Shown here piece after piece: positions 8,679 to 63,659 of a stretch of DNA of 64,000 nt; position 1 is the first letter of the stretch; each line of letters starts with the position of its first letter. The translations under genes were made by a program, and so were the position numbers. A model generated the notes under the pieces. It searched no databases, had not been told where the DNA came from, and saw only the letters and a list, made by a program, of their open reading frames with translations. Origin of the DNA: Candidatus Saccharimonadota bacterium (GTDB taxonomy: Bacteria; Patescibacteriota; Saccharimonadia; Saccharimonadales; Saccharimonadaceae); assembly GCA_009777315.1 (NCBI GenBank), contig WRMD01000002.1, forward strand, positions 10,401 to 74,400, in the 5' to 3' direction.

Positions 8679-9653
8679 TTAGTGTTCGCCTTCGGTGTGG
8701 AAGCGGTCGTGGATTTCTTTTAAGTGTTGGTCGGTGAGGTGGGTGTAGACTTGGGTGGTGGAGATGTCGGCGTGGCCGAGGAGGCCTTGGACGGAGCGGA
8801 GGTCGGCGCCATTCATGAGGAGGTCGGTGGCGAAGGAGTGGCGCATGGTGTGGGGGGTGACTTTTTTGGTGATGCCGGCGAGCTTGGAATACTTATCGAC
8901 GAGGCGCTGAACGGAGCGGGCGGTGAGGCGGGCTGAATTCTTGTCGTCTTTGTCGTCTTTTTCTTTGGGATTAGGGCTGGTGATCTTGTCGCGGTAGTTG
9001 ATGAAGAGGGCTTTGGATTGGTCGTTTCTGGTGGCGAGGTAGTCGGAGATGGTTTCGGCGGCGGAGGGGGAGAGGAAGACGGGGCGGTCTTTGTCGCCTT
9101 TGCCGCGGACGACGAATTCGCGGCGTTCGAGGTTGATTTGGCCGCGGTCGAGGGCGACGAGTTCGGAGACGCGGAGGCCGGAGGAAAAGAGGAGCTGGAG
9201 GATGGCTTGGTCGCGGAGGTTGTCGGGGGGGATTTCGTTTAGGATGCGTTCGACTTCGTCGATTTGGAGGAAGGAGACTTGGGGTCTGACGACTTTGGGG
9301 AGGTCGATTTTAGCGGCGTCGAGGGATTTGATGTCACGGCGAGCGAGGTATTTTAAGAATTGGCGGAGGGCGATGATGTAGTAGGTTTGGGTGCGGATGG
9401 AGAGGGTTTGGCCGCGGTCATCTTTGTAGCGGTTGAGGTAGAGGCGGTACTGGCGGATGAGGTCGGGGGTGATGTCGGAGGGTTTGGCGGAGGAATCTTG
9501 GTCGGGGTTTTTGGGGTCGGCGGGGCGGTGGTCGTCGGCGAATTGGGCGAAGCGTTCGAGGTAGAGGCGGTAGTTGGCGATGGTGCGGAGGGAGCGGCCG
9601 CGCTCGATTTCGAGAAATTCGAGGAAGTTGTCGATGAGGTCGGTGATGTACAT
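8679..9653 (-). CDS. tyrosine recombinase, XerC/XerD family
   Basis: 324 aa. Catalytic motifs are ARLTARSVQR, HTMRHSFAT and LLGHADISTTQVYTH (R-H-R-Y set). Confidence 0.85.
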   Translation of the reverse strand: MYITDLIDNFLEFLEIERGRSLRTIANYRLYLERFAQFADDHRPADPKNPDQDSSAKPSDITPDLIRQYRLYLNRYKDDRGQTLSIRTQTYYIIALRQFLKYLARRDIKSLDAAKIDLPKVVRPQVSFLQIDEVERILNEIPPDNLRDQAILQLLFSSGLRVSELVALDRGQINLERREFVVRGKGDKDRPVFLSPSAAETISDYLATRNDQSKALFINYRDKITSPNPKEKDDKDDKNSARLTARSVQRLVDKYSKLAGITKKVTPHTMRHSFATDLLMNGADLRSVQGLLGHADISTTQVYTHLTDQHLKEIHDRFHTEGEH

Positions 9654-13383: not shown

Positions 13384-13582
13384 CTCCTTCGCCGCTGTCT
13401 CATCGGGCTGGAATGCAGGAGAACAGTCAACTTCTTCATATTGGTGGCCCTCATCACTAGATTCAAGCACAAATCCTTCTAGCGGTGCCATACTAAGCTC
13501 GATTCTTTGGCCGAGTACCGCAAACAACCATAAGTCCTACGGCTTCTCCCTCCGCTGTGTCTACCCGTAGGGGGTGGGGAGG
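13384..13582 (+). repeat. hypervariable cassette arm R3 (solo)
   Basis: Inner boundary ctccttcgccgctgtc at 13384-13399 and TAG at 13568-13570. The outer boundary ends 3 nt before the stop of the next gene. Open frame: FAAVSSGWNAGEQSTSSYWWPSSLDSSTNPSSGAILSSILWPSTANNHKSYGFSLRCVYP*. Confidence 0.9.
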
Positions 13583-13974: not shown

Positions 13975-14189
13975 CCTCCCCACTCCCTACGGGTAGACAC
14001 AGCGGAGGGAAGTGCCATGATTCTTGTCCATCTGGTTGTCACCCGGGTGAGTAATAGTAGCAACTAAGTGAAAGAAGTTTGAACGCATACCGTTACTCTC
14101 GAATACGCCAGAAGTCCACCAGCGCGCCTCAGTACCCTGAAGCCATACTGAGGCGGGGCTGCTCACACCTCCCGTGACAGTGGCGAAGG
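13975..14189 (-). repeat. hypervariable cassette arm L4 (solo)
   Basis: Outer boundary cctccccactccctacgggtagacacagcggaggg at 13975-14009 and inner boundary at 14176-14189. Open frame: FATVTGGVSSPASVWLQGTEARWWTSGVFESNGMRSNFFHLVATITHPGDNQMDKNHGTSLRCVYP*. Confidence 0.9.
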
Positions 14190-18597: not shown

Positions 18598-18625
18598 CCT
18601 CCCCACCCCCTATGGGTAGACACAG
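18598..18625 (-). repeat. arm remnant L5 (outer boundary only, arm body deleted)
   Basis: cctccccaccccctatgggtagacacag is followed directly by family C module copy 2. Confidence 0.7.
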
Positions 18626-18626
18626 G

Positions 18627-18725
18627 GTCCAGCTAAGAGACACCTAGCGGTTTCTCTTCCTCTTCCCTTTTAGGTAAAGTCAAAAAGGCAGGAGTGAATC
18701 CTGACCTTTTTGACGAACTAAGAAG
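18627..18725 (+). repeat. repeat module family C, copy 2
   Basis: Aligns with 8537-8625 (gctaaga.acac..agcggttt.tcttcct...aaaaag.cagg...cctgac.tttt). Confidence 0.6.
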
Positions 18726-18792: not shown

Positions 18793-19001
18793 CTCCTTCG
18801 CCACTGTCCCGACTGGTCACTTCAACGGTAGCTTACGGGAGCAATCTATTGATTTGCGTTCGTGGGCTTCATCAGCTGGTCCGACAGCTTCTTCCCTTAC
18901 GGAGGTGCGGGGTACGTCTGTCATACCAGCTGATGTTACCGCTGGGTCTAGATATGCTGGTATCTCCCTCCGCTGTGTCTACCCGTAGGGGGGTGGGGAG
19001 G
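18793..19001 (+). repeat. hypervariable cassette arm R6
   Basis: Inner boundary at 18793-18808 and TAG at 18986-18988. There is one extra G in the G-run. Open frame: FATVPTGHFNGSLREQSIDLRSWASSAGPTASSLTEVRGTSVIPADVTAGSRYAGISLRCVYP*. Confidence 0.9.
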
Positions 19002-19433: not shown

Positions 19434-19663
19434 TCTCCCCACCCCCTACGGGTAGACACAGCGGAGGGACATGCCATAAAACCTAGCGTTACTGTTTACA
19501 CCGGGGACGATTCGAGGGGCATCTACAAGTGCGAAATGAACGTAGTCGTCAGAAGACAAGGATGCCGAATACCACTGCCCGTAATTAGACTGAAACGTCA
19601 GACCGTGGCCGAGGGCTGGGGCACCACCGGGAGCAAAGAAAGCCGTAGAGACAGTGGCGAAGG
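19434..19663 (-). repeat. hypervariable cassette arm L7 (left arm of element 19434-20011)
   Basis: The outer boundary starts 2 nt after the rnhA stop. The inner boundary is at 19650-19663. Open frame: FATVSTAFFAPGGAPALGHGLTFQSNYGQWYSASLSSDDYVHFALVDAPRIVPGVNSNARFYGMSLRCVYP*. Confidence 0.9.
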
Positions 19664-19791: not shown

Positions 19792-20011
19792 CTCCTTCGC
19801 CGCTGTCTCGGCAGATATCTTCAATCCTGGCGGCGGTCAATATGGTAGGCCAACAATCACACTTTGGTTTGCTTCGTCAGTTTTCTCGACCACTTGGGGG
19901 ACTCTCACGAACTTAAGCGACACGTCTATCTCCCCGGGCGCGAATAACCCGGGCAATTCTAAGTTCGCAGGCTTTACCCTCCGCTGTGTCTACCCGTAGG
20001 GGGTGGGGAGG
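19792..20011 (+). repeat. hypervariable cassette arm R8 (right arm of element 19434-20011)
   Basis: Inner boundary ctccttcgccgctgtc at 19792-19807 and TAG at 19997-19999. Open frame: FAAVSADIFNPGGGQYGRPTITLWFASSVFSTTWGTLTNLSDTSISPGANNPGNSKFAGFTLRCVYP*. Confidence 0.9.
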
Positions 20012-23905: not shown

Positions 23906-24128
23906 CTCCTTCGCCACTGTCTCGGCAGACTATTTTGCCCCAGCTAGAGGTTTAAGAGCTACATTCGTCGGATATTGGATGACGCCGTCTCTATGGTCCC
24001 AGGTATCTGCAAGTTTAGTCGTTGTGGTTGAAGACGCTATCCACCCGGCAATAGTTGCAAGCAACCTGACCGGACGCAAACTTGATGGCTGGACCCTTCG
24101 CTGTGTCTACCCGTAGGGGGTGGGGAGG
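23906..24128 (+). repeat. hypervariable cassette arm R9 (solo, next to tRNA-Ser)
   Basis: Inner boundary at 23906-23921 and TAG at 24114-24116. The Leu codon is ctt. Open frame: FATVSADYFAPARGLRATFVGYWMTPSLWSQVSASLVVVVEDAIHPAIVASNLTGRKLDGWTLRCVYP*. Confidence 0.9.
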
Positions 24129-24181: not shown

Positions 24182-24271
24182 GGAGAGGTGTCCGAGTGGT
24201 TTAAGGAGCACGCTTGGAAAGCGTGTGTGCGGGCAACCGTACCTGGGGTTCGAATCCCCATCTCTCCGCCA
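24182..24271 (+). tRNA. tRNA-Ser (anticodon GGA)
   Basis: GGAGAGGTGTCCGAGTGG..., anticodon loop UUGGAAA, a long variable arm, T-loop GGTTCGAATCC and encoded CCA. Confidence 0.9.
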
Positions 24272-27952: not shown

Positions 27953-28163
27953 CCTCCCCACCCCCTACGGGTAGACACAGCGGAGGGTAATGCCTATTTG
28001 TTTTGGCAGGGTATTTGTAGCCGGGCTGAACGAATTCTGTTGCATGTTAAGGCGCATAAAGTGCGTAGCCGAAGCCAAAGATGGTGTGTGCCAAGATGTA
28101 TGCGTAGATTGAGTCTGTAGGCCATTTGGAATATGAAGAGTATCTGCCGAGACAGTGGCGAAG
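27953..28163 (-). repeat. hypervariable cassette arm L10 (element 27953-28488)
   Basis: Outer boundary at 27953-27987 and inner boundary at 28151-28163. Open frame from track ORF 27965-28222: FATVSADTLHIPNGLQTQSTHTSWHTPSLASATHFMRLNMQQNSFSPATNTLPKQIGITLRCVYP*. Confidence 0.9.
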
Positions 28164-28265: not shown

Positions 28266-28488
28266 CTCCTTCGCCACTGTCTCTACCGGGTTCTTTAGTC
28301 CTATAGCCTCTTATGCTGGTATGCGTAACCCGTCAGAGAATGCCACTTCGTGGACGGCGTCACTAGTCACGGTAATAAACTCTGCGGGTATGATGGTTAC
28401 TACAAATATCCGTCCGGGCGAAGGTTCTTTCGACACTAAAGCCTATGGCCTTTCCCTACGCTGTGTCTACCCGTAGGGGGTGGGGAGG
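28266..28488 (+). repeat. hypervariable cassette arm R11 (element 27953-28488)
   Basis: Inner boundary at 28266-28281 and TAG at 28474-28476. The Leu codon is cta. Open frame: FATVSTGFFSPIASYAGMRNPSENATSWTASLVTVINSAGMMVTTNIRPGEGSFDTKAYGLSLRCVYP*. Confidence 0.9.
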
Positions 28489-29261: not shown

Positions 29262-30860
29262 ATGTTCGAGAAATTGGCGCGCGGGAGTGGACGGCTGAGC
29301 AGGTTTGTATTGAAGCGCGAGTGGCTCAGGATAGTGATATGGACCGTGTGTTTGGTCGGCATGAGCGTGGTGGTGGTGCTGGCGTTTACGCGGATGTTTG
29401 ACACGCCGGAGAGTCGACAGGAAATGGTGGTGGCGATGGAGAATCCGGCGATGGTGGCGATGGTGGGAAAGAGCGCAGGGTATGCGAACTATACGATTGG
29501 CGCGATGAACGCGCACATGATGATGGTGTTTATGGCGATTGCTATCGGCGTGATGAATATCTTTATGGTGGTGCGGCATACGCGGCGCGATGAGGAGCTG
29601 GGGCGGCAGGAGTTGATACGTAGTTTGCCGGTGGGGCATTTGGCGCCGCTGTCGGCGACGCTGATGGTGGCTGCGGCAGTAAACTTGGTGATTGGACTGG
29701 GTATTGGCTTGGCGATGGCGGGTCTGGGTGTGGCAAGCGTGGACTTTGCTGGATCGATCTTGTACGGGCTGGCGCTCGGAGCGGTGGGGCTGGTGTTTGC
29801 AGGGATCGCGGCGGTAACTGCGCAGTTGGCACAGACAGCGCGTGGGGCGACGAGTATCGCGATGGGGATATTGATAGTGAGTTATTTGGTGCGGGCGGTG
29901 GGGGATATGAATGCGGAATGGCTGTCGAGGCTGTCGCCGCTAGGGCTGGTGATGGAGACGGAAGCGGCGGTGAATAATATATGGTGGCCGGTGTGGGTGC
30001 TGATTGCGATAGCGGCAGTGCTGATGGTGGGGGCGTTATGGCTGAATGAAGTGCGGGATATGGATCAAGGATTCTTGCCGGCGCGGCCGGGGCGGGCGAA
30101 TGCGTCGAAATGGTTGCAGTCGCCGCTGGGGTTGTCGCTGCGGCTGATGCGTGGGTCGATAGTTGCGTGGGTGATAGTGATGCTACTGTTTGGTGCGTCG
30201 TATGGGTCGGTGCTGGGTGATACGGAAGCGTTTAGTGATACGATTGCGACGATGACGGGCGGGGTGGCGGCGGGTGAGGATTTAGCGGTGGCGTTCGTGA
30301 GTGTTTTGATGCTGATATTGTCGCTGTGCGCGTGTATACCGGGGCTGATAATGGCGCTGAAGTTGCGGGCTGAGGAAAGGCGCGGGCGGCTGGAGGCGAT
30401 ACTGGCGGGGTCGGTGGATAAAGGGAGGATTTTTTGGTCGTATGTGGGGCCGGCGCTGGATTTTAGTTTGGTGGCGATGGTGCTGGCGGTGGTCGGGCTG
30501 TGGAGTGCAGGGGTGGCGACGATGGAGACGCCGATTGCGTTTTGGGAGATGCTTAGGGCGGTGTTGGTGTTCTTGCCGGCGGTGTGGATGACGGTTGGGT
30601 TGGCGGCGTTTTTGATAGGGGTGGCGCCAAAGATTGCTTCGTGGGTGTGGGGGTTCTTTGTGGGGTCGTTTTTGGTGGTGTATGTCGGGAATATCGTTGG
30701 GCTGCCGGAGTGGGCAAAGAGGTTGACGCCGTTTGGCTGGGTATCTAATGCAATGGTAGAGGATATAAGCTGGGTGCCGTTGATCGTGACGACGGGGATC
30801 GCGGTGGCGCTGGTGCTAACTGGGGTATATGCGTATAGAAGACGGGAAATGGTGAGTTAA
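29262..30860 (+). CDS. ABC-2 type transporter permease
   Basis: 532 aa with about 12 hydrophobic helices. It lies 3 nt after the ATPase gene. Confidence 0.7.
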   Translation: MFEKLARGSGRLSRFVLKREWLRIVIWTVCLVGMSVVVVLAFTRMFDTPESRQEMVVAMENPAMVAMVGKSAGYANYTIGAMNAHMMMVFMAIAIGVMNIFMVVRHTRRDEELGRQELIRSLPVGHLAPLSATLMVAAAVNLVIGLGIGLAMAGLGVASVDFAGSILYGLALGAVGLVFAGIAAVTAQLAQTARGATSIAMGILIVSYLVRAVGDMNAEWLSRLSPLGLVMETEAAVNNIWWPVWVLIAIAAVLMVGALWLNEVRDMDQGFLPARPGRANASKWLQSPLGLSLRLMRGSIVAWVIVMLLFGASYGSVLGDTEAFSDTIATMTGGVAAGEDLAVAFVSVLMLILSLCACIPGLIMALKLRAEERRGRLEAILAGSVDKGRIFWSYVGPALDFSLVAMVLAVVGLWSAGVATMETPIAFWEMLRAVLVFLPAVWMTVGLAAFLIGVAPKIASWVWGFFVGSFLVVYVGNIVGLPEWAKRLTPFGWVSNAMVEDISWVPLIVTTGIAVALVLTGVYAYRRREMVS

Positions 30861-30863
30861 TTG

Positions 30864-30892
30864 TTGACAGTGGGAAAACGCTTATGTATACT
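30864..30892 (+). promoter_or_regulatory. sigma-70 type promoter TTGACA-N17-TATACT for the leaderless pilin gene
   Basis: The -35 element is at 30864-30869 and the -10 at 30887-30892. The -10 ends 6 nt before the ATG at 30899. Confidence 0.55.
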
Positions 30893-30898
30893 AATGTT

Positions 30899-31393
30899 AT
30901 GGACAAGAATGTAAAAAAGCGTGGGTTTACAATTATTGAAGTTGTGTTGGTGCTTGCGATTGCAGGCCTTATCTTCTTGATGGTGTTTATTGCGTTGCCA
31001 GCGCTGCAACGTAACCAACGAGATACGCAGCGAGAAAATGACTTAGGTCGGATGATGGCGGCGTTGACGCGGTTCCGTGCTAACAACAGGAACAGGCTTC
31101 CGGGTGAAGGGCAGCCGGGTGGTGTAACTGCGGTGAACCACTGGAATACCTTCCGGGATCGATATTTGATGGTGAACAACGATACGTTTGAGGATCCGCA
31201 GTCGGGTGTCGTGTACAACTTTACTGTTGTGAACGGTGCGGCTGGTGATCCGGGTGATGCCGGTAGCGGAAACCTGCGGGTACATATTGGCGCGCGATGT
31301 AATGGTGAAGCGGCTGAGGCTGTGGCTGGAAACCGAAACGTGGCGGTGCGAATGCGGCTTGAAGGTGGCGGTATTATTTGTCAGAGTAACTAG
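30899..31393 (+). CDS. type IV pilin-like protein (prepilin-type N-terminal cleavage/methylation motif)
   Basis: MDKNVKKRGFTIIEVVLVLAIAGLIFLMVF, i.e. G-F-T-x-x-E followed by a hydrophobic helix. The track ORF starts at 30884 and I prefer 30899. Confidence 0.7.
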   Translation: MDKNVKKRGFTIIEVVLVLAIAGLIFLMVFIALPALQRNQRDTQRENDLGRMMAALTRFRANNRNRLPGEGQPGGVTAVNHWNTFRDRYLMVNNDTFEDPQSGVVYNFTVVNGAAGDPGDAGSGNLRVHIGARCNGEAAEAVAGNRNVAVRMRLEGGGIICQSN

Positions 31394-31733: not shown

Positions 31734-31948
31734 CCCCACCCCCTACGGGTAGACACAGCGGAGGGAATGGCCGTAATGCTTGTAGCGGCTTCCGGCTATA
31801 CCAGATTCTGTAGCGCTGATAGACACTCGCGTAAGAGCCGGGCGACTTGCTGCCACGTCAAGTGACGCGTTCATCCAGCGTTCTTGCTGAGATTGGCCAG
31901 TCACACCTTGTGACGACAGAAAGTAACTACTCGAGACAGTGGCGAAGG
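31734..31948 (-). repeat. hypervariable cassette arm L12 (element 31734-32331)
   Basis: The outer boundary starts ccccaccccctacggg, so the first 3 nt differ from consensus. The inner boundary is at 31935-31948. Open frame: FATVSSSYFLSSQGVTGQSQQERWMNASLDVAASRPALTRVSISATESGIAGSRYKHYGHSLRCVYP*. Confidence 0.9.
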
Positions 31949-32032: not shown

Positions 32033-32056
32033 AGAGAAACTTTATAAAGTTTCTCT
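32033..32056. repeat. 24-bp perfect palindrome agagaaactttataaagtttctct
   Basis: Self-complementary by inspection. An imperfect copy is at 31980-31994. Confidence 0.85.
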
Positions 32057-32331
32057 TCGCCACTGTCTCGGAGGGGTTCTTTTGGTCGGGTACTGACATA
32101 CGGGAGCAGTCTGAGCTAACGCACTGGTGGTCTGGCTCGCTTTTCTCTAGCACAAGTCCTGCGCGTATCCGCTTAAGTGAAATAGCGATTGATCTGGCTA
32201 CTGGTACACACCAGAAAAACCATGGTAGATCCCTCCGCTGTGTCTACAGATACTCCTCCTACTCGCCTTGCAGGCTCGGACAGGACGCCCGAGGCAGGCA
32301 GAGCCTGACCTCGGGCTAGGGGGTGGGGAGG
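32053..32331 (+). repeat. hypervariable cassette arm R13 with an interrupted outer boundary
   Basis: The inner boundary ctcttcgccactgtc is at 32053-32067. The boundary is split after gtctac at 32247 by 69 nt and resumes with tagggggtggggagg at 32317. Frame from track ORF 31996-32319: FATVSEGFFWSGTDIREQSELTHWWSGSLFSSTSPARIRLSEIAIDLATGTHQKNHGRSLRCVY then RYSSYSPCRLGQDARGRQSLTSG*. Confidence 0.85.
32248..32316 (+). other. 69-nt insertion inside the arm outer boundary
   Basis: The sequence is agatactcctcctactcgccttgcaggctcggacaggacgcccgaggcaggcagagcctgacctcgggc. It contains the 8-bp hairpin gcccgagg...cctcgggc and replaces the ccg Pro codon. Confidence 0.8.
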
Positions 32332-38793: not shown

Positions 38794-38821
38794 GTACGAA
38801 TGGATCTTTGTCTCGCATCCT

Positions 38822-39032
38822 TCTCCCCACCCCCTACGGGTAGACACAGCGGAGGGATGCAGCCCAAGATTTAGAGTGTGTGTAGGTGGCAGTTGATATG
38901 CGAGAAGCTACAATGTCGCCTCTATTTGCCTGGTCGTCAGAGAAGAGGGAAGGGTGCCAAAAGTTAGCAGCGCCTGATTGAATGGTCACACCATTGGGCG
39001 CAAGGAAGTCGTTAGACGAGACAGTGGCGAAG
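38822..39032 (-). repeat. hypervariable cassette arm L14 (element 38822-39158)
   Basis: Outer boundary at 38822-38856 and inner boundary at 39020-39032. Open frame: FATVSSNDFLAPNGVTIQSGAANFWHPSLFSDDQANRGDIVASRISTATYTHSKSWAASLRCVYP*. Confidence 0.9.
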
Positions 39033-39058
39033 TTGGTCTAGCTCGCTAAAACTCACGG

Positions 39059-39158
39059 GAGTCGGTGTCGCAAATATCCACTCCGGTATGCATACGGGCA
39101 GCTTAGGCAAAGCTTTTGGCCATTCCCTTCGCTGTGTCTACCCGTAGGGGGTGGGGAG
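39059..39158 (+). repeat. truncated cassette arm R15 (C-terminal ~30 codons only)
   Basis: There is no inner boundary. The frame is ...GVGVANIHSGMHTGSLGKAFGHSLRCVYP* with TAG at 39145-39147. The Leu codon is ctt. Confidence 0.75.
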
Positions 39159-39172
39159 ATTTTGGCAAATTC

Positions 39173-39249
39173 TGGTGAGTCGGGTGGGACTCGAACCCAC
39201 GACACCCAGATTAAGAGTCTAGTGCTCTAACCAGCTGAGCTACCGACCC
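39173..39249 (-). tRNA. tRNA-Lys (anticodon CUU)
   Basis: The reverse complement is GGGTCGGTAGCTCAGCTGGTTAGAGCACTAGACTCTTAATCTGGGTGTCGTGGGTTCGAGTCCCACCCGACTCACCA. Confidence 0.9.
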
Positions 39250-39307: not shown

Positions 39308-39517
39308 TCCCTTCGCCACTGTCACGGATAGCCAGTTTGTTGTGCAACAGGGTTTAGTTGGGCCGGGGACACGCGCTTTCTTTTGGACTTCATCTTTGAT
39401 TTCAAGTTCTAACCCAACTTACATATGGATTATGCCAACAGCAGTTGATATGTCGCGTTCTGATCGAGCCAAAGACCCTGGCTTCTCTCTCCGCTGTGTC
39501 TACCCGTAGGGGGTGGT
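39308..39517 (+). repeat. hypervariable cassette arm R16 (solo)
   Basis: Inner boundary tcccttcgccactgtc at 39308-39323 and TAG at 39507-39509. The G-tail is degenerate (gggggtggtgtg). Open frame: FATVTDSQFVVQQGLVGPGTRAFFWTSSLISSSNPTYIWIMPTAVDMSRSDRAKDPGFSLRCVYP*. Confidence 0.9.
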
Positions 39518-39534
39518 GTGTTAAAATATGGCAT

Positions 39535-39882
39535 ATGAGGAAGTCTTTTTTAATTATCCTTCACCTTGCGCTGACCATCGCTACATACACTTCTTGGCTC
39601 TGGCTGGGATGGGGTTTTGTTGCATTGATCGGCCTTGTGCATATCGCCTACCTAGAAGTTTACCAGGGGTGCCATCTGTCGAGGAAACAGTTCGGCAACT
39701 CGGAGGACAAATTTTACGAATGGTGGATGAGTAAGCTCGGCATCAAGGTCAAAGACCGCCAAAAGACGCGAATTTTCATGACTTACGTAGTGCCGCTTAT
39801 CGTCGCGGTCATTGCGCTTGTGTGGCAAGTTGTTTTGGGCTTCGCGCCGTTGCTGCAGATCCTCCCCACCCCCTATGGGTAG
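39535..39882 (+). CDS. hypothetical small membrane protein
   Basis: MRKSFLIILHLALTIATYTSWLWLGWGFVALIGLV... TGtTAAAAT ends 7 nt before the ATG. The last 7 codons and the stop (ILPTPYG*) lie inside arm terminus L17. Confidence 0.55.
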   Translation: MRKSFLIILHLALTIATYTSWLWLGWGFVALIGLVHIAYLEVYQGCHLSRKQFGNSEDKFYEWWMSKLGIKVKDRQKTRIFMTYVVPLIVAVIALVWQVVLGFAPLLQILPTPYG

Positions 39883-40072
39883 ACACAGCGGAGGGAGAAG
39901 CCGGTAGACTTGCCGCCAGTGCTACCGAGCATGTTAATTGAAGAAATATTTATAATTGGGTAGGCTGGAGGATTCGCTCCTGTCATAGACGCTGCCCACC
40001 ATGATGTGCGATCGGACATTTGAAAGACACCATTAGAAGCACTCATATAGCCACCCGAGACAGTGGCGAAGG
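39861..40072 (-). repeat. hypervariable cassette arm L17 (element 39861-40335)
   Basis: Outer boundary at 39861-39895 with the Pro codon cca (synonymous). Inner boundary at 40059-40072. Open frame: FATVSGGYMSASNGVFQMSDRTSWWAASMTGANPPAYPIINISSINMLGSTGGKSTGFSLRCVYP*. Confidence 0.9.
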
Positions 40073-40125: not shown

Positions 40126-40335
40126 CTCCTTCGCCACTGTCTCACAGGATATCCTGCTTGTTGCTACTGGCCTACTTAGTCAATCCGCTAGAGCAACATG
40201 GTGGTCAGCTGGTAATAATACCGGTACTACGTCATCAACTATTTCTATGGGAGTGGCTGATATAACTATGGCAGAATCCGGAGCCCTAAGATCTGACGGC
40301 AGATCCCTCCGCTGTGTCTATCCGTAGGGGGTGGG
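40126..40335 (+). repeat. hypervariable cassette arm R18 (element 39861-40335)
   Basis: Inner boundary at 40126-40141 and TAG at 40324-40326. The Tyr codon is tat (synonymous). Open frame: FATVSQDILLVATGLLSQSARATWWSAGNNTGTTSSTISMGVADITMAESGALRSDGRSLRCVYP*. Confidence 0.9.
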
Positions 40336-40338
40336 ACG

Positions 40339-43277: not shown

Positions 43278-43485
43278 CCTCCCCACCCCCTACGGGTAGA
43301 CACAGCGGAGGGAGAGACCTATCCATGAATTGTTAGCGTATGTACCCGGGTAGATAATTGGAGGGCCCACCCATGTATAGATTGCGGTTGCTAAAGAAGA
43401 TAATGATGATAACCACCAGTGTTCGTTTTCGGTTCGTAAGCCAGACATACCGGTCTGAAGCCAACCCGTAGTGACAGTGGCGAAG
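43278..43485 (-). repeat. hypervariable cassette arm L20 (element 43278-43818)
   Basis: Outer boundary at 43278-43312 and inner boundary at 43473-43485. Open frame: FATVTTGWLQTGMSGLRTENEHWWLSSLSSLATAIYTWVGPPIIYPGTYANNSWIGLSLRCVYP*. Confidence 0.9.
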
Positions 43486-43602
43486 TTGGTCTAGCTCGCT
43501 AAAGCTCGCGATAAAGCAGACAAAATGTCATTTTGATCTGCTTTATGCCTACCGGCGTTCGCTAGCGCTCACGGGGGTAAGAAACTTTATAAAGTTCCGA
43601 CT

Positions 43603-43818
43603 CTCCTTCGCCACTGTCACTACGGACTATTTCACCGGCGGATCAGGACTTGTATTCAGAGACCCTGCGTATGCATATTGGTGGGGCTCATCGCTAACTT
43701 CGACTACCGGTATAGGCAATACCCATATCGGCGGACCTACTCTACGCCCAGGTACAGAAGGCGTAGGTAGATACTTCGGCTTCTCCCTCCGCTGTGTCTA
43801 CCCGTAGGGGGTGGGGAG
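43603..43818 (+). repeat. hypervariable cassette arm R21 (element 43278-43818)
   Basis: Inner boundary at 43603-43618 and TAG at 43805-43807. Open frame: FATVTTDYFTGGSGLVFRDPAYAYWWGSSLTSTTGIGNTHIGGPTLRPGTEGVGRYFGFSLRCVYP*. Confidence 0.9.
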
Positions 43819-46249: not shown

Positions 46250-47854
46250 CTAATCGCCCATTCTGATCTCGACCGTGATGTGATCGAACTGGGTAGGGAC
46301 GCGATTGACCCAGAAGAAGTTGAAGCGAACGGTAGCGTTTGTGATGTCGCGGCTTTGGATGGCGCGATTGGCGTCGCTGGCGCTCCGACCGGCGACGGCT
46401 TCCTTGACGGAATCTTCGGAGATGTCGGGGCCGACGACGGTGGTGGTTTGGAGGCGGGAGGTCATTTGATTGTTAGCTTCGGAGAAATTGCCGAAGAACA
46501 TGCGGTCAAAGCCGAGGTCGAAGATTTTGGTGCTGTCTTCGCCAGCGACGCGCTCTTCTTCACGGATGCGGATGAAGGTTTCGAGGTCGGCGCGATTGAC
46601 GCCGTAACCGGTGAAGGTGGTGGTTTGGCGGATAGTAATGCGTTGGTCGGACCCGACTTCGGCGTCGACGGCGGCAGAACTGGTCGGATCGCTAGTAGAG
46701 GAGGTGAAGGCGGCGCGCGGCAGGGCGATAAGATCGGCGGCGAAGTTGTTGGCGAGCTCGGTTTCGGCGGCTTGGCGGTTGACAACAGGGAGGGCGGCAA
46801 GGGCGGAGTCGTAGTCGCTTTGAGAGACGATAGTGATAGTGCGTTTACTGCCGCCGGTGATGCTCATGGCAGTGGCGGTAAAGTTGTGGGGAGTGCCGGC
46901 CAAGGTAATGGAAAAGGCGCCGCCACTGGTGCGATTGAATTCGTCGCCGAGGGCGGTGGCACGGACGTTCAGTGTTACCTGACCAGAGTTGGCTGTGGTG
47001 GCTTCAGTGGTGCGATAAGTGTGGCTGCCGATGGTGATGGCGGTGTTGGAAGGGATGTTGGCAGGGAGCCCGGCGTAAGTGAAGGTGATCTGACCGCTGG
47101 CGTACTCGCCGATTTCACGACTACCTGTAGCAGTGAACTCGTATTCGCTGACTTTTTCGAGGGTCTCGGAGTGAAGAAGGAAGACGCCGGCTTCTGGGTT
47201 GGCCTCGCCAGCGTTACGAGTGAAGGAAATGGGTTCGTTGAAATTGTGGCGGCTGGTGCGGGCAGTAATCTCGATGGTAGCGCGGGCGGGAACAAAAACG
47301 ATGACGCTAATGATGGCAAGAATGATAACACCGATGGGGATGAGAACGAAGCGGGCGTATTTTTTAAACCAGTCCTTGAAGGATTTGACCTCTTGAGTTT
47401 CGGTGGACTTTTTGGTGTCGGCGAGCTTAACCTTGGGGACGAGGTTGCCGTCGCTGAGCGGATCAGTAGCAGCGACATCGGCAGCAGCTTCGTCTTCGAG
47501 GTCGGTGAATCCGATGGGGGGGGCGGGGTCGTCTGGCTCGTCGATGGTGCTCCCGTGACTGTCAGCTTGGTCGGGTTTAGGCGGTAGGACGGGCTTGTCA
47601 CGAAGGGACTTGGCGACGGGCAGGCCGACTTGGCCGGCTAAAGGCAAAATCTCGGGGTTGTTGCTGACGAGGACGATGGATTTTTTGCCGCGGGTGGCAA
47701 CACGAGAGAGGAGGCGGATGTTGACGATGTTGCGTAGGGCGCCGAGAGACTTCGGTAGAACTAAAACGACTAATTGAGATTTAGCGCGGGTGACTTTGGC
47801 GGAAATGGTGGTAATATCATCAGCCAAATCTAGGTAGATGGTTTCTTTAGTCAT
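46250..47854 (-). CDS. hypothetical membrane-anchored protein (between ruvX and ftsA)
   Basis: 534 aa with one TM helix (FVLIPIGVIILAIISVIVFV) and an extracytoplasmic Thr/Ser-rich region. The 509-aa plus-strand ORF is a low-complexity shadow. Confidence 0.6.
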   Translation of the reverse strand: MTKETIYLDLADDITTISAKVTRAKSQLVVLVLPKSLGALRNIVNIRLLSRVATRGKKSIVLVSNNPEILPLAGQVGLPVAKSLRDKPVLPPKPDQADSHGSTIDEPDDPAPPIGFTDLEDEAAADVAATDPLSDGNLVPKVKLADTKKSTETQEVKSFKDWFKKYARFVLIPIGVIILAIISVIVFVPARATIEITARTSRHNFNEPISFTRNAGEANPEAGVFLLHSETLEKVSEYEFTATGSREIGEYASGQITFTYAGLPANIPSNTAITIGSHTYRTTEATTANSGQVTLNVRATALGDEFNRTSGGAFSITLAGTPHNFTATAMSITGGSKRTITIVSQSDYDSALAALPVVNRQAAETELANNFAADLIALPRAAFTSSTSDPTSSAAVDAEVGSDQRITIRQTTTFTGYGVNRADLETFIRIREEERVAGEDSTKIFDLGFDRMFFGNFSEANNQMTSRLQTTTVVGPDISEDSVKEAVAGRSASDANRAIQSRDITNATVRFNFFWVNRVPTQFDHITVEIRMGD

Positions 47855-49321: not shown

Positions 49322-49539
49322 CCCCGCCACCCCCTACAGGTAGACACAGCGGAGGGGGTGGCCACGGAACTTATGGCTGCCCGAACGGACTCCCGGGTCA
49401 ATAACAGTGGCGCTAACACCTGTGTAGCTCGGTGTTGTTGCGGAGAAAAGTGAAGAGGAACGCGGAACGAACCATGTGGATTGACCAATTAGGCCGCCAC
49501 TAGCAGGATTAAAGGCGTCTGATGAGGCAGTGGCGAAGG
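49322..49539 (-). repeat. hypervariable cassette arm L22 (element 49322-49769)
   Basis: This is the most diverged boundary (ccccgccaccccctacagg, giving RCVYL*). The inner boundary is ggcagtggcgaagg. Frame from track ORF 49334-49558: FATASSDAFNPASGGLIGQSTWFVPRSSSLFSATTPSYTGVSATVIDPGVRSGSHKFRGHPLRCVYL*. Confidence 0.85.
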
Positions 49540-49546
49540 CTCGCTC

Positions 49547-49769
49547 CTCCTTCGCCACTGTCGCGAATGGATTCTTTTACATTATTGCTCCTCTAGGGCC
49601 CGGGTTGAATAACCAGTCTGATCATGTATATTGGTGGAACTCTTCACTGGCTTCATCATCAAACATAGCTAACTCCGGTATGACCGTAGCACATCTGCAT
49701 GCGGGGGCGAACAGTAGCGTCAAGTTTATTGGCTTCTCCCTCCGCTGTGTCTACCCGTAGGGGGTGGGG
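49547..49769 (+). repeat. hypervariable cassette arm R23 (element 49322-49769, only 7 nt of spacer)
   Basis: Inner boundary at 49547-49562 and TAG at 49758-49760. Open frame: FATVANGFFYIIAPLGPGLNNQSDHVYWWNSSLASSSNIANSGMTVAHLHAGANSSVKFIGFSLRCVYP*. Confidence 0.9.
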
Positions 49770-58892: not shown

Positions 58893-61800
58893 TTAGAAGC
58901 GGGGGGCGACTTCGCGAGAAAAGGTCATGAAGGCCTGGGAGTAGTTTTGACTTTGAGCGGCGGCCCAGAGGTAGGTGTCGGAGCGGAGGTTGAAGATTTC
59001 GCTGGGCGGGTAGTTGGTGGCGGAATTGTCGAAGTGGGAGCGGTAGAGGCGGACTTGGTTGGCGATATGGGGGCCGTTGAGACGGAGCTGGCCGGTACAG
59101 ACATCACCGCTGAGCATGCTGATGTTCATCGGGGTGCCGTTGTGTTCGGAGCAGGTATTGATGGTGCCGGAGTTAGATGGAGGAACCATACCGGGGCCGC
59201 GATTGAGGCCGGCCAGCAGCCAGGAATCGACGCGGGAGACGGTGTCAATGATGTTTATGTTGTGGGCGAAAGTGAGAAGCTGGGGGATTTGGTGGATGCT
59301 GGTGTGAGGGCCGTTGTGGTAGACAACGTCTGAGCGGAAGGTAACGATGCCGGTGCTGTCGAGGATGATAGTGCGGCCTTGCGGGATGACCCAGCCTGAG
59401 TTAGTGGTGATGTTCATGTTGCCGCCGCGGATATATATAGTGCTGGCGGCGGTCGCGCCGACGACGCTGGATAGGTTGATGTCGCCGCTCATACTAAAGC
59501 CTTGCCAGCCCTCTGGGAGATCGGCCATGTCGCGGTTGGAGTAGCGGATGGAGATGTTTTCGGCGAGACTGGAGCCGACGTTGGCGCTGCCGAGAGCTGC
59601 CATGGTGCCGACGGTACAGTTGGTGTTGGCGAGAGTTTGCATGGAGAAGCGACAGGCATTGGTGATGACGCCAAAGCCGGAACCGGCGGGGGTGACGATG
59701 CTGGGGTTGCCGCCGGCAAAGGCGGCACCGCTGCCGAGGGCGGAAATGGTGCCCTGGCCGCCTTGACCGAGCGCGGCGTATTCGACCCATGAGCCCCAAG
59801 CGCTGACGGGATTATTGCGGACTTGGATGCCGGCGCGAACCGGGCCGGCGCTGAAGAAGTTGGCAGCCCAGACTTGGGTGGATGGCTTCTCGCCGATAGC
59901 TACACAAGTTGGGGTGCTGTGCCAGGCCATGTCGACATTGGTATCGTTCCAGCCTTGGTCGCCGTAGAGACTGCCACTTCCGGCAGAGCGGTTACCAACG
60001 TTGAAGCGGCGGATGGACATAGCGACACAGAACTTGGTGCCGATGGGGTGGTCGGACAATGGCGGAGTGACGCCGGGGAAGAACGAAACGACCGGGACAT
60101 TGTTTTGGGATACGGCGGTGTTACTGTTACTGACGTTGAATGGGCCGGTGCCTTCGGAGCCGGGAGCGGCTAGAGAACAGCCGAAGATGTTGCCGGGAGT
60201 ATAGCTGCCCCAAACGGCTTGACAATGGTCGTTGGCTGACGAGCCCCACCGGTTGTTTTGCTCTGGTGCGTTGTTGAAGGGGAAGGAAGGGACGTTGTAA
60301 TTGACATACCAAGAGACGATGCGCCAAGCGGAGTCGGGGCGGGTTTGGGTGGCGTAGGCGGAGCCGCCGACATCGCCGTTGACTTCGGGGCGGATGGTAA
60401 CACTGGCGTTAAACTCGATCGGGGTACCGGCGAGGACGATGGGGGCCGGAGCATCAAGGTAAAGATTGCCGGAGAGGCTGTAGTTGTAGGGGATGCCGAA
60501 GGAAGCGGTGGACTGGATGGGGCCGGGATTGGATCGCTTGACCCAGGAGTAGCGGTTTTCGAAGTAGGAGGCGGAAAGGGTGCCGGAGGAAGTACAGGTA
60601 CCGGTGTTGGATGTGTTGCCAGAAGAGCAGATGGTGGCGTTGGATGGGGTCTGGGTGCCGTAGTAGTTACAACCGCGGGTTTCGGTGGATTGGCAGCAGC
60701 TGGAGCACCAACCGCTGGGGTTTGAGAGGGTGGGAGTGGCGCAGTAACCGGAGGTCCAAATGGGGCAGGAGGCGGTGGCGGCAGAGTTGGGTGAGGTGGC
60801 AGTAGCCGGGGTGTTGTTGCGGGGGCGGAAGGTGTAATTATATTGGTGTTGGTTTTGGCGGCAGACGATGTTGCTGCCACCTGGGACACCGGGACCGCCG
60901 ACAAAATCGTTGGTGCCGGCGCCATCGCTACAGTTTTGGAAGCGCTTGCTGACGGCGTCTTGGACGGAAATAGTGTGTTGGATGTCGCGACGACCGAGAA
61001 GAGCGTTGGAGACGGTGTGGCCGGAGCCGCGCGGGTTCTGGGTGCCGGAATTGATGACGTTTTGGCCTGGTGAGGTAGGCTCCATGCCGGATTGGCCGTT
61101 TTGATTAGTGATGGTCCAAGCGTTGCGAAGGTCGGGGCTGGGGCCGGGATGGATGGTGTTAAGTTGGAGCTGAGTGCCGGGTGGGTTGGAGGCGACGCAA
61201 TTGTTGGCTAGGTTGGATTCGCCGGTAGCGCCACAGCGGGTGTGGGTGATATTAAATGAAGGGAAGTTGGAGCGGTTGGACGGGGTGGTGCGGGTGTGAA
61301 GGGCGACGAGCTGGCCAGTCCAGCCGAAAGCGATGGTGTTGCCGGGGCGGGCGTAGGCGCGCTCGGCGCTGGTATTGGTGCTGGCGCAACCGAGCTGGCC
61401 AGTGAGCCAAGAGCCGGTGGTCTGACCGGCGAGACCGGCGTGACAAGCGACATCGGCCTGGCGAGCGACCGAACCGTTAATAATAGCCTGGGCACGGATG
61501 TGACTGGAGAAGACTTCTGCGGACGGAGTAGCAGTGGGTGGGTCGCCGGGGTCGCCACCGGGGATTTCGGGCGGGTCGGCGCCACGGGTGATGGTGACTT
61601 CGGCAAAGGAGGTGGGGTTGAGAGTTTGAGTCTGCCGGATGGTGCAGGAGGTAGTGCCGCCGGGGCTGGGAGCGGCGATGTTGACGGTGACGGGAGTGGT
61701 GGTGCTGGTGCGTTCTTCGGCGCCACCAACCAAAGTGACCGTATCACTGGCTGGCGTTGCTGGAATAATACTACAGCTGCCAGAAGAGGTAGCGGAAACT

Positions 61801-63659
61801 GTCCACTCGATGTCTGCCGGTTCAGTACCGTCGTCAATGCGCTGAGCATCATGATGAAAGCCGACGCTACAGGCGACGTTACCCTCGACGTTATTTGGAA
61901 TGGTGATGGAGCTTTGGGCGGAACTGTTCCACCCTGAAACGTTGGGGCTAGAAGGCTGGGTGTTGGTGCCGGGGCAGGAGGCGGTGACGGCGGAGCGAGT
62001 CTGAAAGACCGGGTCGATAACTTCAGGGTAAATAAATATCATACTGACGTTTTGCTGCTGGTTGAGAGCTGGAGTCCAAGGCAAAGGGCCGGGAGTACGC
62101 ACGGCCGCGTTGGCAATACTGTGGACGATGGCGGCTTGAGTAGCCGTAGGCTCGGCGGCGTGTAGTAGCGCCGGAGGAAAGTTACTATAAGGCCCCTCTG
62201 GGTGCGAGATCATGGTGTCAGGAAAGAAATCACCTGTGCCTGGCTTTGGACCCTGGCAGTTGTGCATAATACTAATATAAGTGTCTGAACCAATACTGTA
62301 AGTGCCGGACGCGTTAGCACAGTTGCCGAATGAAAGCTGAGGGGCGTATGACCAGCCTTTAAGGTCGAGACCAGACGCCGTGCGGGCGGCGAAGTTGAGC
62401 CGGAGAGGGTGAGCGTCACAAATGGCCTGCGTATAGCCACCGCCGGGAGGAGAACGACGGAGGTTGTGCTCTTGACGAGAGGCGTGAACGTCCGCAGATA
62501 GCAGCCCGACGCGGCTGGCGGTGTCGGTGACGAGGGCGTAGGCGGTATGACCGATGCTATGGAGAAGGACGGAAATTCGGGTGTAAGCATAGCGATTCAT
62601 CATGGTGTCTAGGAACTGCTCCCAGCTGAGATAATCGCCACCGGAGAGGCTCTCCAGGCGAATAATGTTAATCATGCCGGCGGTGGAGGTAAAGATGTCA
62701 GTAAACTCGCCGACCTCGGTGAGCTCGGAAGCTTTATCCCAGATGCGGATTGTTGGGCCAGGGTTTGCGGCAAGGCTGTCGATTGGGATATCTCTGAGAC
62801 AACCGTCTTCGCTCTCTAGGCAGGCAACACTACCGGCTACAATGGCCGGTTCTTGTTCAAGCAGCATCCATGCCTCGCTGTTATCTACGCCGTCATTGAT
62901 AAAGTCGATGTCAGCGTGACGAGCGATTTCGCTGGCAGATAAACCTTGCTCAAGCATAGGCACAAACTCGTCGCGCAACCGCTGGCGGACAGCATCGAAG
63001 GCGGCTAGAGTGCCCTCTTCGTCTTGGTTCATGAAGTAGGGGGTGACAACTTGGGCACCGATATAGATGATGTCGCGCTGGCTGATGATGCAGGTGTCCA
63101 TTTTGTCCTGGAGAACGATGTTTTCCATGCGGACGCGGAGGAAGTAGCCGGGGCCGCCGAGCATGCTGTCGATTTGTTCGTCGGCTTCGGACTCGCTAAG
63201 ATTACGACCGAAAGCACGCATGATGTCTTGCGGGGTCATTTCGACGTGGCAGGTGTCGCTATTGTAAAGTTTGAGGGAGGCGTTTAAAACGAGGTCTTCG
63301 AGAGCTTGGCGCTCGACATCCTGCTCGAGGACAATGTTGGGGTTTAACGTGAGGTGGTGGCGGAAATCTTCGGCATTACGCTCGATTTGCTCCTGAGTGA
63401 TGGTGATGTCGCCGATGACGATGTCAGCAAGGCGAACTTGGCGGTCAGGCAGGAGGAAGGCGAGAGCGAGAACCACGAGAAGGATGACGCCAAGGCCGCC
63501 GCCAACCCAAGGGGCGAACTTTTTGAATAATGATAGTGCTTTTTGCTTTTTCTGATCGCCAAAGACGTCGCTGTTTGTGTTATTTGGCGCGGACGCCATC
63601 GGGGTAGGACCACTCGGCGCTGCCGATGGAGTTGCCCCTGTACCATTTACCTCATCCAT
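58893..63659 (-). CDS. giant (1588 aa) membrane-anchored extracellular protein
   Basis: N-terminal TM helix GGGLGVILLVVLALAFLL, a SurA_N-like segment, and long Ser/Thr/Asn/Gly/Cys-rich regions. The C-terminal repeats suggest a beta-helix. TGcTATAAT ends 7 nt before the ATG. Confidence 0.75.
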   Translation of the reverse strand: MDEVNGTGATPSAAPSGPTPMASAPNNTNSDVFGDQKKQKALSLFKKFAPWVGGGLGVILLVVLALAFLLPDRQVRLADIVIGDITITQEQIERNAEDFRHHLTLNPNIVLEQDVERQALEDLVLNASLKLYNSDTCHVEMTPQDIMRAFGRNLSESEADEQIDSMLGGPGYFLRVRMENIVLQDKMDTCIISQRDIIYIGAQVVTPYFMNQDEEGTLAAFDAVRQRLRDEFVPMLEQGLSASEIARHADIDFINDGVDNSEAWMLLEQEPAIVAGSVACLESEDGCLRDIPIDSLAANPGPTIRIWDKASELTEVGEFTDIFTSTAGMINIIRLESLSGGDYLSWEQFLDTMMNRYAYTRISVLLHSIGHTAYALVTDTASRVGLLSADVHASRQEHNLRRSPPGGGYTQAICDAHPLRLNFAARTASGLDLKGWSYAPQLSFGNCANASGTYSIGSDTYISIMHNCQGPKPGTGDFFPDTMISHPEGPYSNFPPALLHAAEPTATQAAIVHSIANAAVRTPGPLPWTPALNQQQNVSMIFIYPEVIDPVFQTRSAVTASCPGTNTQPSSPNVSGWNSSAQSSITIPNNVEGNVACSVGFHHDAQRIDDGTEPADIEWTVSATSSGSCSIIPATPASDTVTLVGGAEERTSTTTPVTVNIAAPSPGGTTSCTIRQTQTLNPTSFAEVTITRGADPPEIPGGDPGDPPTATPSAEVFSSHIRAQAIINGSVARQADVACHAGLAGQTTGSWLTGQLGCASTNTSAERAYARPGNTIAFGWTGQLVALHTRTTPSNRSNFPSFNITHTRCGATGESNLANNCVASNPPGTQLQLNTIHPGPSPDLRNAWTITNQNGQSGMEPTSPGQNVINSGTQNPRGSGHTVSNALLGRRDIQHTISVQDAVSKRFQNCSDGAGTNDFVGGPGVPGGSNIVCRQNQHQYNYTFRPRNNTPATATSPNSAATASCPIWTSGYCATPTLSNPSGWCSSCCQSTETRGCNYYGTQTPSNATICSSGNTSNTGTCTSSGTLSASYFENRYSWVKRSNPGPIQSTASFGIPYNYSLSGNLYLDAPAPIVLAGTPIEFNASVTIRPEVNGDVGGSAYATQTRPDSAWRIVSWYVNYNVPSFPFNNAPEQNNRWGSSANDHCQAVWGSYTPGNIFGCSLAAPGSEGTGPFNVSNSNTAVSQNNVPVVSFFPGVTPPLSDHPIGTKFCVAMSIRRFNVGNRSAGSGSLYGDQGWNDTNVDMAWHSTPTCVAIGEKPSTQVWAANFFSAGPVRAGIQVRNNPVSAWGSWVEYAALGQGGQGTISALGSGAAFAGGNPSIVTPAGSGFGVITNACRFSMQTLANTNCTVGTMAALGSANVGSSLAENISIRYSNRDMADLPEGWQGFSMSGDINLSSVVGATAASTIYIRGGNMNITTNSGWVIPQGRTIILDSTGIVTFRSDVVYHNGPHTSIHQIPQLLTFAHNINIIDTVSRVDSWLLAGLNRGPGMVPPSNSGTINTCSEHNGTPMNISMLSGDVCTGQLRLNGPHIANQVRLYRSHFDNSATNYPPSEIFNLRSDTYLWAAAQSQNYSQAFMTFSREVAPRF

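Follow-up and report, generated by a model that had tools for sequence, protein, structure and literature searches.

At positions 43278-43818 of the 64,000-nucleotide (nt) stretch of contig WRMD01000002.1 analyzed here (the window), which belongs to a termite-gut Saccharibacteria genome, two open reading frames (ORFs) diverge from a 122-nt center, bear the same 27-nt tail at both outer boundaries, and both read FATV...SLRCVYP-stop. We use the word arm for such a start-less ORF, running from a head that encodes FATV to a tail that encodes SLRCVYP and a TAG stop, and the word pair for two arms diverging from a center. The tail, CGCTGTGTCTACCCGTAGGGGGTGGGG, has 21 copies in the window at three or fewer mismatches where none is expected, and translation upstream from each of them (frame ...CGC TGT GTC TAC CCG TAG) gives FATV...(W/F/Y)W.SS...G.SLRCVYP-stop. 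In total the window holds 20 full-length arms, all open and 19 of them with a standard head and tail, besides one 5'-truncated arm and one remnant (Table 1). The arm without a standard tail carries an inverted-repeat-rich, in-frame insertion of 69 nt (32248-32316) between GTCTAC and TAG, in place of CCG; despite this insertion it is stop-free up to the canonical TAG, which is followed by GGGGTGGGGAG (longer form, GGGGTGGGG).

An earlier, sequence-only reading of this DNA had claimed that the full-length arms all keep one reading frame, that their lengths differ by whole codons, and that selection acts on the encoded peptide. We compared 53 to 64 distinct arms from the window and related contigs, using 53 arms from the window and 23 other contigs as the frame control. 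All 20 full-length arms of the window are indeed open, and in the larger set no stop interrupts frame 0 in 51 of 53 arms, with a mean of 2.5 to 3.8 stops in the other five frames and just 0 to 5 arms open in any one of them. Lengths do vary by whole codons, the distance from head to stop (183-225 nt) being divisible by three in all but one of the 53 arms. Codon-aware alignment, the ratio of nonsynonymous to synonymous substitution rates (dN/dS) and indel phase, which had been proposed as checks, all uphold selection on the peptide: we found neither many broken arms nor substitutions spread evenly over codon positions.

The decisive evidence comes from the arm interiors, not from the tail. When about 60 distinct arms are aligned by codon, the interior residues that are conserved (G, L, Q, S, S, S, L, P, G, K, G, which make up GL..QS, the SS and L found C-terminal to the tryptophans, P-G, K, and the last G) have pairwise identities of 0.6 to 1.0 at codon positions 1 and 2 and of 0.26 to 0.31, the random level, at position 3. 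Conserved serines are coded by both TCN and AGY, and the conserved Lys/Arg codon is AAA or AAG about equally often. The arms are conserved as protein, by purifying selection at the amino acid level in their interior. The tail says less about this than had been supposed. The synonymous variants described there are real (Leu as ctc, ctt, or cta, Pro as ccg or cca, Tyr as tac or tat), with two coordinates off by one (the Leu codons lie at 24096-24098 and 28456-28458), but the drift that they represent is slight, since third positions in the tail are 94 to 100% conserved even though they were left free in the pattern used to search metagenomes.

A single pair of close relatives gives the same answer at short range. 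Nonorthologous arms have interiors about 50% identical, with the sole exception of window:49537- and L027:4529+ at 86.5% (labels beginning with L denote contigs or loci that we compared, and those beginning with P denote proteins). Because both contigs carry proteins of one accession series, these two arms are paralogues in one genome. They are separated by 20 synonymous and 4 nonsynonymous differences (dS 0.53, dN 0.027, dN/dS 0.05, p = 8e-9), mostly C/T and A/G at third positions. Their homology has its first base at CCTTCGCCACTG and its last at GGGGGTGG, and the flanks are unrelated; being confined from head to tail in this way, it identifies the arm as a discrete unit of transfer or duplication.

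Profile comparisons show the arms to be homologues of the last 66 residues, the C-terminal third, of the lectin-like FISUMP domain (Fib_succ_major, PF09603/TIGR02145), with which they have the motifs WW.SS and G.S(L/V)RCV in common. Single arms are too short to reach the Pfam threshold (best score, 14.8 bits, E = 0.034, at positions 143-186 of the 187 in the Fib_succ_major profile), and NCBIfam returned no match on arms alone. Sequence and profile searches of the PDB were negative. A FISUMP hidden Markov model (HMM) made from 12 Saccharibacteria proteins matched every arm, only at model positions ~315-385 of 385 and with E-values mostly of 1e-8 to 1e-16. When the arm profile was run exhaustively against 1.84 billion representative proteins, there were 338 matches. 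The long ones contain one to several FISUMP domains, each ending ...WRSSFGTVSSG.F..GL..QS...WWSSSL....PG...K..GF.VRCV.., and appear to be Saccharibacteria-type surface proteins. One compared contig, L016, carries the 3' end of a real gene of this family (...CPTGWRVP...NEW...FGAVSAGS...WWTSSL...GFSVRCVFP*; 33.4 bits against a cutoff of 33.9), whose last 66 residues match the arm profile while its head and tail nucleotides are different.

A canonical arm occurs in a single long protein, P0050 (MCL2095134.1; 877 amino acids [aa], annotated as IPT/TIG domain-containing). Its C terminus runs SSFATV...HSLRCVYP, through ...FWRSSFATVTTG...RGHSLRCVYP and ...TFWRSSFATVTTGHLDPRSPGLTGQSTGHANWWATSLLSGEGGISVYLTSTDIGPGTAPVWVKFRGHSLRCVYP, and its WRSSFATV and SLRCVYP match the arms at the amino acid level. 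Residues 517-877 align (E = 3e-54) to P0037, a bona fide FISUMP protein (40 bits to PF09603, 50.3 bits to TIGR02145) with an accession in the same series, and the stretch of P0037 that the arm is aligned with is its final 66 residues, 245-310. An AlphaFold model of P0050, built on a shallow alignment, is poor, with a mean predicted local distance difference test (pLDDT) score of 41, and reaches 66 to 82 only in the arm. Word-indexed protein searches gave just 19 spurious small ORFs for the arm profile and P0050 itself only when P0050 was the query. The window, contigs L025, L026, and L027, and P0050 have NCBI accessions within the run MCL2094603 to MCL2095188, under the name Candidatus Saccharibacteria bacterium, and locus tags in that series, where present, bear the prefix FWH13. 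As the accession series is contiguous and the tags agree, all five most likely belong to one metagenome-assembled genome (MAG), and by the same accession series P0050 is the full-length gene ending in a canonical arm in the same assembly as the window arms.

The genome has several FISUMP paralogues (P0037, P0152, and P0050), and one could therefore take the arms for functionless relics of FISUMP paralogues that decayed through genome reduction. All copies, however, have identical, sharp boundaries on the 5' and the 3' side, 51 of 53 are intact despite saturated divergence and are under selection at the amino acid level, and the ends are identical in nucleotides across genomes of 44 to 57% GC. 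We regard decay as effectively refuted.

The arms nevertheless cannot be translated in place. In 36 of 61 arms the open stretch from the upstream stop to the head contains no in-frame ATG, GTG, or TTG, in 55 of 61 it contains no ATG, and its median length is about 14 codons. In some arms a stop stands 2 to 5 codons before the head; one of these is L027:4529+, which is under selection and has a stop 3 codons upstream. The right arm of the pair at 43278-43818 has 44 open codons upstream, without an in-frame ATG, GTG, or TTG. With 36 of 61 lacking a start and all of them intergenic, the arms are not ordinary genes. In this genome their GC content at third codon positions (GC3) is 0.44, near that of intergenic DNA outside the arms (0.47) and unlike that of host genes (0.68), as expected for DNA that is rarely translated. 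On most contigs, arm third-position GC is about 0.40 to 0.50, at a contig GC of 0.44 to 0.57.

Selection as strong as a dN/dS of 0.05 would fit arms that are nonetheless expressed in place, by non-AUG or leaderless initiation, by trans-splicing, or by another way of joining them to a separate N-terminal part. In pairs with a minimal center, the reverse complement of the partner head does supply an in-frame GTG or ATG and gives (M/V)AKEE..FATV, as in P0008 and P0017. Such a route is hard to reconcile with the 36 arms that have no candidate start and with the stops just upstream of others, including L027:4529+; a 66-residue C-terminal third of a lectin domain would be unlikely to fold alone; the centers are too short and too heterogeneous to be intron parts; and GC3 resembles that of noncoding DNA. 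We consider expression in place very improbable.

At their ends the arms are conserved in a different manner. The head, TTCGCCACTGTC (12-16 nt, preceded by TCC as (TCC)TTCGCCACTGTC), is fixed also at synonymous sites. The tail is about 36 nt long, comprising the SLRCVYP codons, TAG, and then GGGGTGGGGAGG, with the nucleotide form TCCCTCCGCTGTGTCTACCCGTAGGGGGTGGGGAGG. In the FATV head and in the tail through the 9 to 12 nt after TAG, third and poststop positions are 84 to 100% conserved. The suggestion that an additional DNA- or RNA-level constraint acts on the same sequence is thus borne out. Several arms also retain an in-frame WRSS or RSS 5' of FATV, like P0050. The tail was considered as a hairpin, a terminator, or an intramolecular G-quadruplex, and each was rejected, as its fold has a z score of -0.8 and the core tail has just two long G runs.

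Most arms sit in head-to-head inverted pairs around mosaic centers of 11 to 143 nt. A 14-nt palindrome, AACTTTATAAAGTT (extended form, GAAACTTTATAAAGTTTC), has seven copies where none is expected, confined to the centers of arm pairs; two centers hold two copies each, spaced exactly 56 nt apart. It may bind a protein or represent a nested mini-element. Prediction of sigma-70-type promoters in the centers gave none. A 65-nt center module with a small hairpin, GCGATTTTCGC, is 100% identical in L004:1-65 and L009:2514-2578, two contigs of different sample origin. It is followed by unrelated arms, and past the tails the flanks differ as well, so center modules have a dynamic of their own. We also considered L004 and L009 as one orthologous locus with a swapped arm and rejected this, since all they have in common is the module, the head, and the tail.

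These features invite the view that the elements are selfish palindromic repeats derived from the 3' end of a FISUMP gene, with the arms as long terminal inverted repeats in the manner of a miniature inverted-repeat transposable element (MITE) or a repetitive extragenic palindrome doublet forming a hairpin (REPIN). The copies are intergenic, abundant, and paired in inverted orientation, their mosaic centers contain small nested modules such as the one shared by L004 and L009 beside unrelated arms, and the whole element folds into a long hairpin (z = -11). On the other side, nonorthologous interiors are only about 50% identical, with no young, near-identical copies, and the two members of a pair resemble each other no more than arms picked at random do. 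One does not expect a noncoding repeat to show an open frame, indels in codon phase, and a dN/dS of 0.05, and the tail alone forms no stable hairpin. We saw no target-site duplications in the flanks that we inspected and found no transposase or RAYT (a REPIN-moving transposase) in 111 kb. Taken together, this makes a selfish repeat improbable.

Comparison of strains bears on what the arms do. Between strains 97.6 to 99.6% identical, there are fewer differences in arms than in neighboring genes, and identical arms were found again in independent samples. Hypervariation between strains, which we had considered, was rejected on these grounds: the arms are not hypervariable in place, and such stability is what one would expect of archival donors.

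We propose that the arms are silent C-terminal cassettes that are copied into the P0050 gene by recombination at the head and tail, a reading to which we assign about even probability. Each arm would be a cassette, with neither promoter nor start codon, for a variant of the ~66 residues that end the FISUMP domain of a large surface protein, and the genome would store a big, dispersed archive of them along with at least one expression gene, MCL2095134.1. The head (12-16 nt) and tail (~36 nt) would serve as recombination or recognition boundaries, at which the copy of a silent arm would replace the resident arm of the expression gene by nonreciprocal gene conversion. We favor nonreciprocal conversion because a reciprocal exchange among copies that are scattered in both orientations should invert or delete essential DNA. 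Each swap would change the putative ligand-binding end of the episymbiont's lectin domain. We infer the copying into the expression gene, along with the enzyme responsible (of RecA type, RecA being encoded in this genome, or a dedicated one) and its benefit (switching of host or ligand, or evasion). The proposal accounts for the open frame, for the two regimes of conservation, for a GC3 like that of noncoding DNA, and for a unit of homology that runs exactly from head to tail.

Several observations weigh against this proposal. No switching event was observed, and the swap itself is something we infer. The match of the P0050 head and tail to the arms is known at the amino acid level only, and the P0050 arm is a copy of none of the ~35 arms from that genome, the best match being ~46% identical. 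A 5' homology of 12 to 16 nt is short for RecA-type recombination. Arm interiors share k-mers no more than codon-shuffled controls do, leaving no trace of recent segmental exchange. Head-to-head pairing with mosaic centers, copy number, and dispersal are left unaccounted for, and hundreds of dispersed cassettes paired head to head are, to our knowledge, a feature of no cassette system. Finally, a dN/dS of 0.05 reflects very strong purifying selection, uncomfortably so for sequences that would be expressed only occasionally.

One way to accommodate the pairing is to suppose that the arms form a prokaryotic germline repertoire, in which hundreds of individually conserved, start-less C-terminal lectin-domain segments, stored throughout a CPR (candidate phyla radiation) genome of ~1 Mb, are joined to one constant gene by an undescribed, dedicated mechanism (a template-library retroelement or a head- and tail-specific recombination machine), with the head-to-head palindromes as part of it. 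We think this unlikely. If true, it would be a third route to diversification of the C-type-lectin scaffold, beside mutagenesis by diversity-generating retroelements (DGRs) and ordinary paralogy.

DGRs themselves suggest another way to the same function. DGR variable regions of the CLec2 class overlap Fib_succ_major, DUF1566, and DUF823 motifs (Wu et al. 2017; PMC5758913), and the arms, being homologous to the FISUMP C terminus, therefore cover a part of the scaffold that retroelements diversify elsewhere. The arms might accordingly serve as stored template repeats, a library whose members would be transcribed, copied by reverse transcription, and homed into the FISUMP gene at its variable end, with other enzymology in place of gene conversion. 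The long 3' tail would take the role of the DGR initiation-of-mutagenic-homing (IMH) element, the element recognized at the 3' end in homing, and the short head would supply homology on the 5' side. Beyond the coincidence of the C-terminal segment with the site of DGR variable regions (PMC5758913), this is favored by a G-rich tail conserved past the stop and by the asymmetry of the homology, ~36 nt at the 3' end versus 12 to 16 nt at the 5' end. DGRs have been described from the candidate phyla radiation (CPR), which includes Saccharibacteria (PMC5758913).

Also in its favor, CPR bacteria are rich in DGRs, and asymmetric 3' and 5' homology is a requirement of DGR retrohoming. Set against this is what the genome holds. 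We saw no reverse transcriptase or Avd gene in ~111 kb, where neither the scanned window ORFs nor the precomputed annotation of L001 and L025 to L027 includes an RVT-type Pfam match. The arms show no adenine-specific pattern, differing by whole-codon indels and by all base types, and we know of no DGR with many different templates. Transfer by a retroelement is for these reasons rather improbable. A shufflon or other site-specific inversion system (Rci/sfx, Gin, or hsdS) was considered as well and rejected, since the arms are dispersed in both orientations rather than clustered beside an expressed gene. The sole integrase in the window (8679-9653), with a phage-integrase catalytic domain and SAM-like N-terminal domains, is presumably Xer-like.

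Silent cassettes are familiar from Neisseria pilE/pilS, Borrelia vlsE, Anaplasma msp2 pseudogenes, and Mycoplasma genitalium MgPa, which, like the arms, use partial copies that have an open frame and neither promoter nor start. In both, a variable core lies between conserved flanks common with one full-length surface-protein gene (for the arms, at the amino acid level), and the donors are stable. The MgPa repeats are an especially close parallel, being dispersed through a small genome, and the Sma/Cla repeat of pil loci is a conserved 3' sequence extending past the stop codon, as in the arms. The arms differ in having ~10 times more copies, placed in almost every other intergenic gap rather than in arrays or a few loci; in lying mostly in head-to-head inverted pairs with mosaic centers; in replacing, by the presumed swap, only the C-terminal third of a lectin-like domain; and in their host, a CPR episymbiont rather than a vertebrate pathogen. 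Their mutual divergence is saturated (~50% nucleotide identity), unlike that of vls cassettes; one statement in a report on that system puts the silent cassettes at ~90% identity to the corresponding vlsE gene's cassette region (PMC11499132).

Other known systems share part of this plan. DGRs acting on CLec2-type variable regions (Fib_succ_major, DUF1566, and DUF823; e.g., Legionella LdtA) diversify the same scaffold at the same C-terminal end and have a conserved 3' boundary element that runs beyond the coding end, whereas the arms have no reverse transcriptase nearby, no adenine-specific substitutions, variable length, and diversity that is stored rather than made afresh. REPINs, bacterial interspersed mosaic elements (BIMEs), MITEs, and Rickettsia palindromic elements are likewise abundant intergenic inverted-repeat units capable of forming hairpins; the arms stand apart from all of these in their selection at the amino acid level, fixed frame, and dissimilar interiors, with no transposase or target-site duplication found, and Rickettsia palindromic elements, unlike the arms, sit inside genes. 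Orphan modules of polymorphic toxins (cdiA-CT and rhs-CT) are also start-less 3' fragments that begin at a conserved junction motif (in the arms, WRSS-FATV) and can be swapped onto a full-length gene. Those modules are grouped downstream of the main gene and accompanied by immunity genes, and their C termini are unrelated; the arms are dispersed, have no partner gene, and have a conserved C-terminal end in common. We found no description of these elements in the searchable literature. The arms are best described as a dispersed cassette library of silent C-terminal segments for a FISUMP lectin-like adhesin, which would be a new form of recombinational cassette variation on a scaffold that DGRs also use.

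Saccharibacteria are obligate episymbionts with tiny genomes, in which recognition and switching of host cells are an open question. In this window, some 6% of the DNA and one-third of the intergenic space are given over to conserved alternative tips of a lectin-like surface protein. Should the cassette model hold, this lineage could program its recognition of hosts or ligands from a stored library, the arms would be the first cassette-type variation system in the CPR, and they would constitute an independent, reverse transcriptase-free solution to the DGR problem on the same fold. For annotators, the arms are a caution that "intergenic repeats" present in abundance can carry strongly selected coding information.

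The tail pattern with third codon positions left free retrieved one contig from a collection of species-representative genomes and 22 metagenome contigs, of 44 to 57% GC. All 23 bear the same kind of arm; the same scan of a viral contig collection gave no match. The sole species-representative match, L002 (WRAN01000031.1; 3.2 kb), has a typical arm pair with an 11-nt center and is binned as Defluviitaleaceae, and the FISUMP protein P0151 is likewise assigned to a Defluviitaleaceae MAG; both are probably misbinned Saccharibacteria contigs. L030 and L031 (JGI 3300010167 and ENA ERZ27257344) carry FISUMP genes with noncanonical C termini (...MAVRCVL and ...LAVRCAL) and no silent arms on those contigs, so the arm system appears limited to a sublineage. 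Arms make up 6.3% of the window and about one-third of its intergenic DNA. About 35 lie in ~111 kb of the genome studied here, and extrapolation to a genome of ~1 Mb suggests that there are probably a few hundred in all.

Table 1. Arms, tails, centers, and palindromes of the 64,000-nt window
Feature	Position in window	Strand	Remark
Left arm tail, pair at 43278-43818	43278-43313	-	Last 7 codons, TAG at 43290-43292, and 12 conserved nt after the stop
Left arm	43290-43484 (43484 to 43290)	-	Start-less, 64 codons + stop, FATVTTGWLQ...GLSLRCVYP*
Center between the two heads	43485-43606	.	Mosaic spacer: A/T-rich hairpin, module GGTCTAGCTCGCTAAAGC..., palindrome AACTTTATAAAGTT at 43583-43596
Right arm	43607-43807	+	Start-less, 66 codons + stop, FATVTTDYFT...GFSLRCVYP*
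Right arm tail	43781-43818	+	TCCCTCCGCTGTGTCTACCCGTAGGGGGTGGGGAG
Full arm, left of head-to-head pair	5622-5822	-	
Full arm, right of pair	5965-6183	+	Identical to GEM protein P0002
Full arm, single	13388-13579	+	FAAV head
Full arm, single	13978-14187	-	
Degenerate arm remnant	18601-18669	-	Tail only
Full arm	18797-18997	+	RNase H gene 22 nt downstream
Full arm, left of pair	19437-19661	-	
Full arm, right of pair	19796-20008	+	
Full arm, single	23910-24125	+	Upstream frame FWRSS, same in full-length gene P0050
Full arm, left of pair	27956-28162	-	
Full arm, right of pair	28270-28485	+	
Full arm, left of pair	31734-31946	-	
Full arm, right of pair	32056-32319 (feature to 32330)	+	Tail interrupted by 69-nt in-frame insertion
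Full arm	38825-39031	-	Tail abuts downstream gene start
5'-truncated arm, headless	39034-39156	+	Profile positions 25-65 matched
Full arm, single	39312-39518	+	
Full arm, left of pair	39864-40070	-	Pro codon CCA
Full arm, right of pair	40130-40336	+	Tyr codon TAT
Full arm, left of pair	49325-49537	-	Paralogue of L027:4529+, same genome, 86.5% identical, dN/dS 0.05
Full arm, right of pair	49551-49769	+	Center just 13 nt
Palindrome AACTTTATAAAGTT, 14 nt each	18740, 28167, 28223, 31982, 32038, 40082, 43583		

The arms are scattered in both orientations among housekeeping genes (those for primase, sigma-70, RNase H, TsaD, FtsA, YceG, ribosomal proteins, and others) and are intergenic, overlapping the chosen long ORFs by 25 nt in total. 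On the minus strand, the tail of the arm at 38825-39031 stops 6 nt short of the in-frame ATG of a downstream 442-aa ORF (window 38818-38830), and its G-rich sequence, GGGGAGAAGG, may act as the ribosome-binding site of that ORF. Six further arms end 22 to 49 nt 5' of the start of a gene on the same strand. Searches of Rfam at gathering thresholds found six tRNAs and no match on arms. A tRNA-Lys gene (39173-39249) is separated by 17 nt from the truncated arm's tail and a tRNA-Ser gene (24182-24271) by 57 nt from that of the arm at 23910-24125; this proximity may be coincidence, both kinds of feature being intergenic.

A separate inverted repeat of 42 nt (31573-31614/31681-31722; 74% complementary, 66-nt loop) sits between a pilin-like gene (30884-31393, with an N_methyl motif) and an arm tail. 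ORFs of 1588 aa (58893-63659, minus strand), 532 aa (29262-30860), and 534 aa (46250-47854) have no Pfam match and may encode lineage-specific surface proteins. Elsewhere in the same genome, a defense island (L025:599-9754) lies beside an arm pair and contains Mrr, DUF6119, and a type I restriction-modification system that has two hsdS-like genes; KwaB and HNH proteins are encoded farther along the locus.

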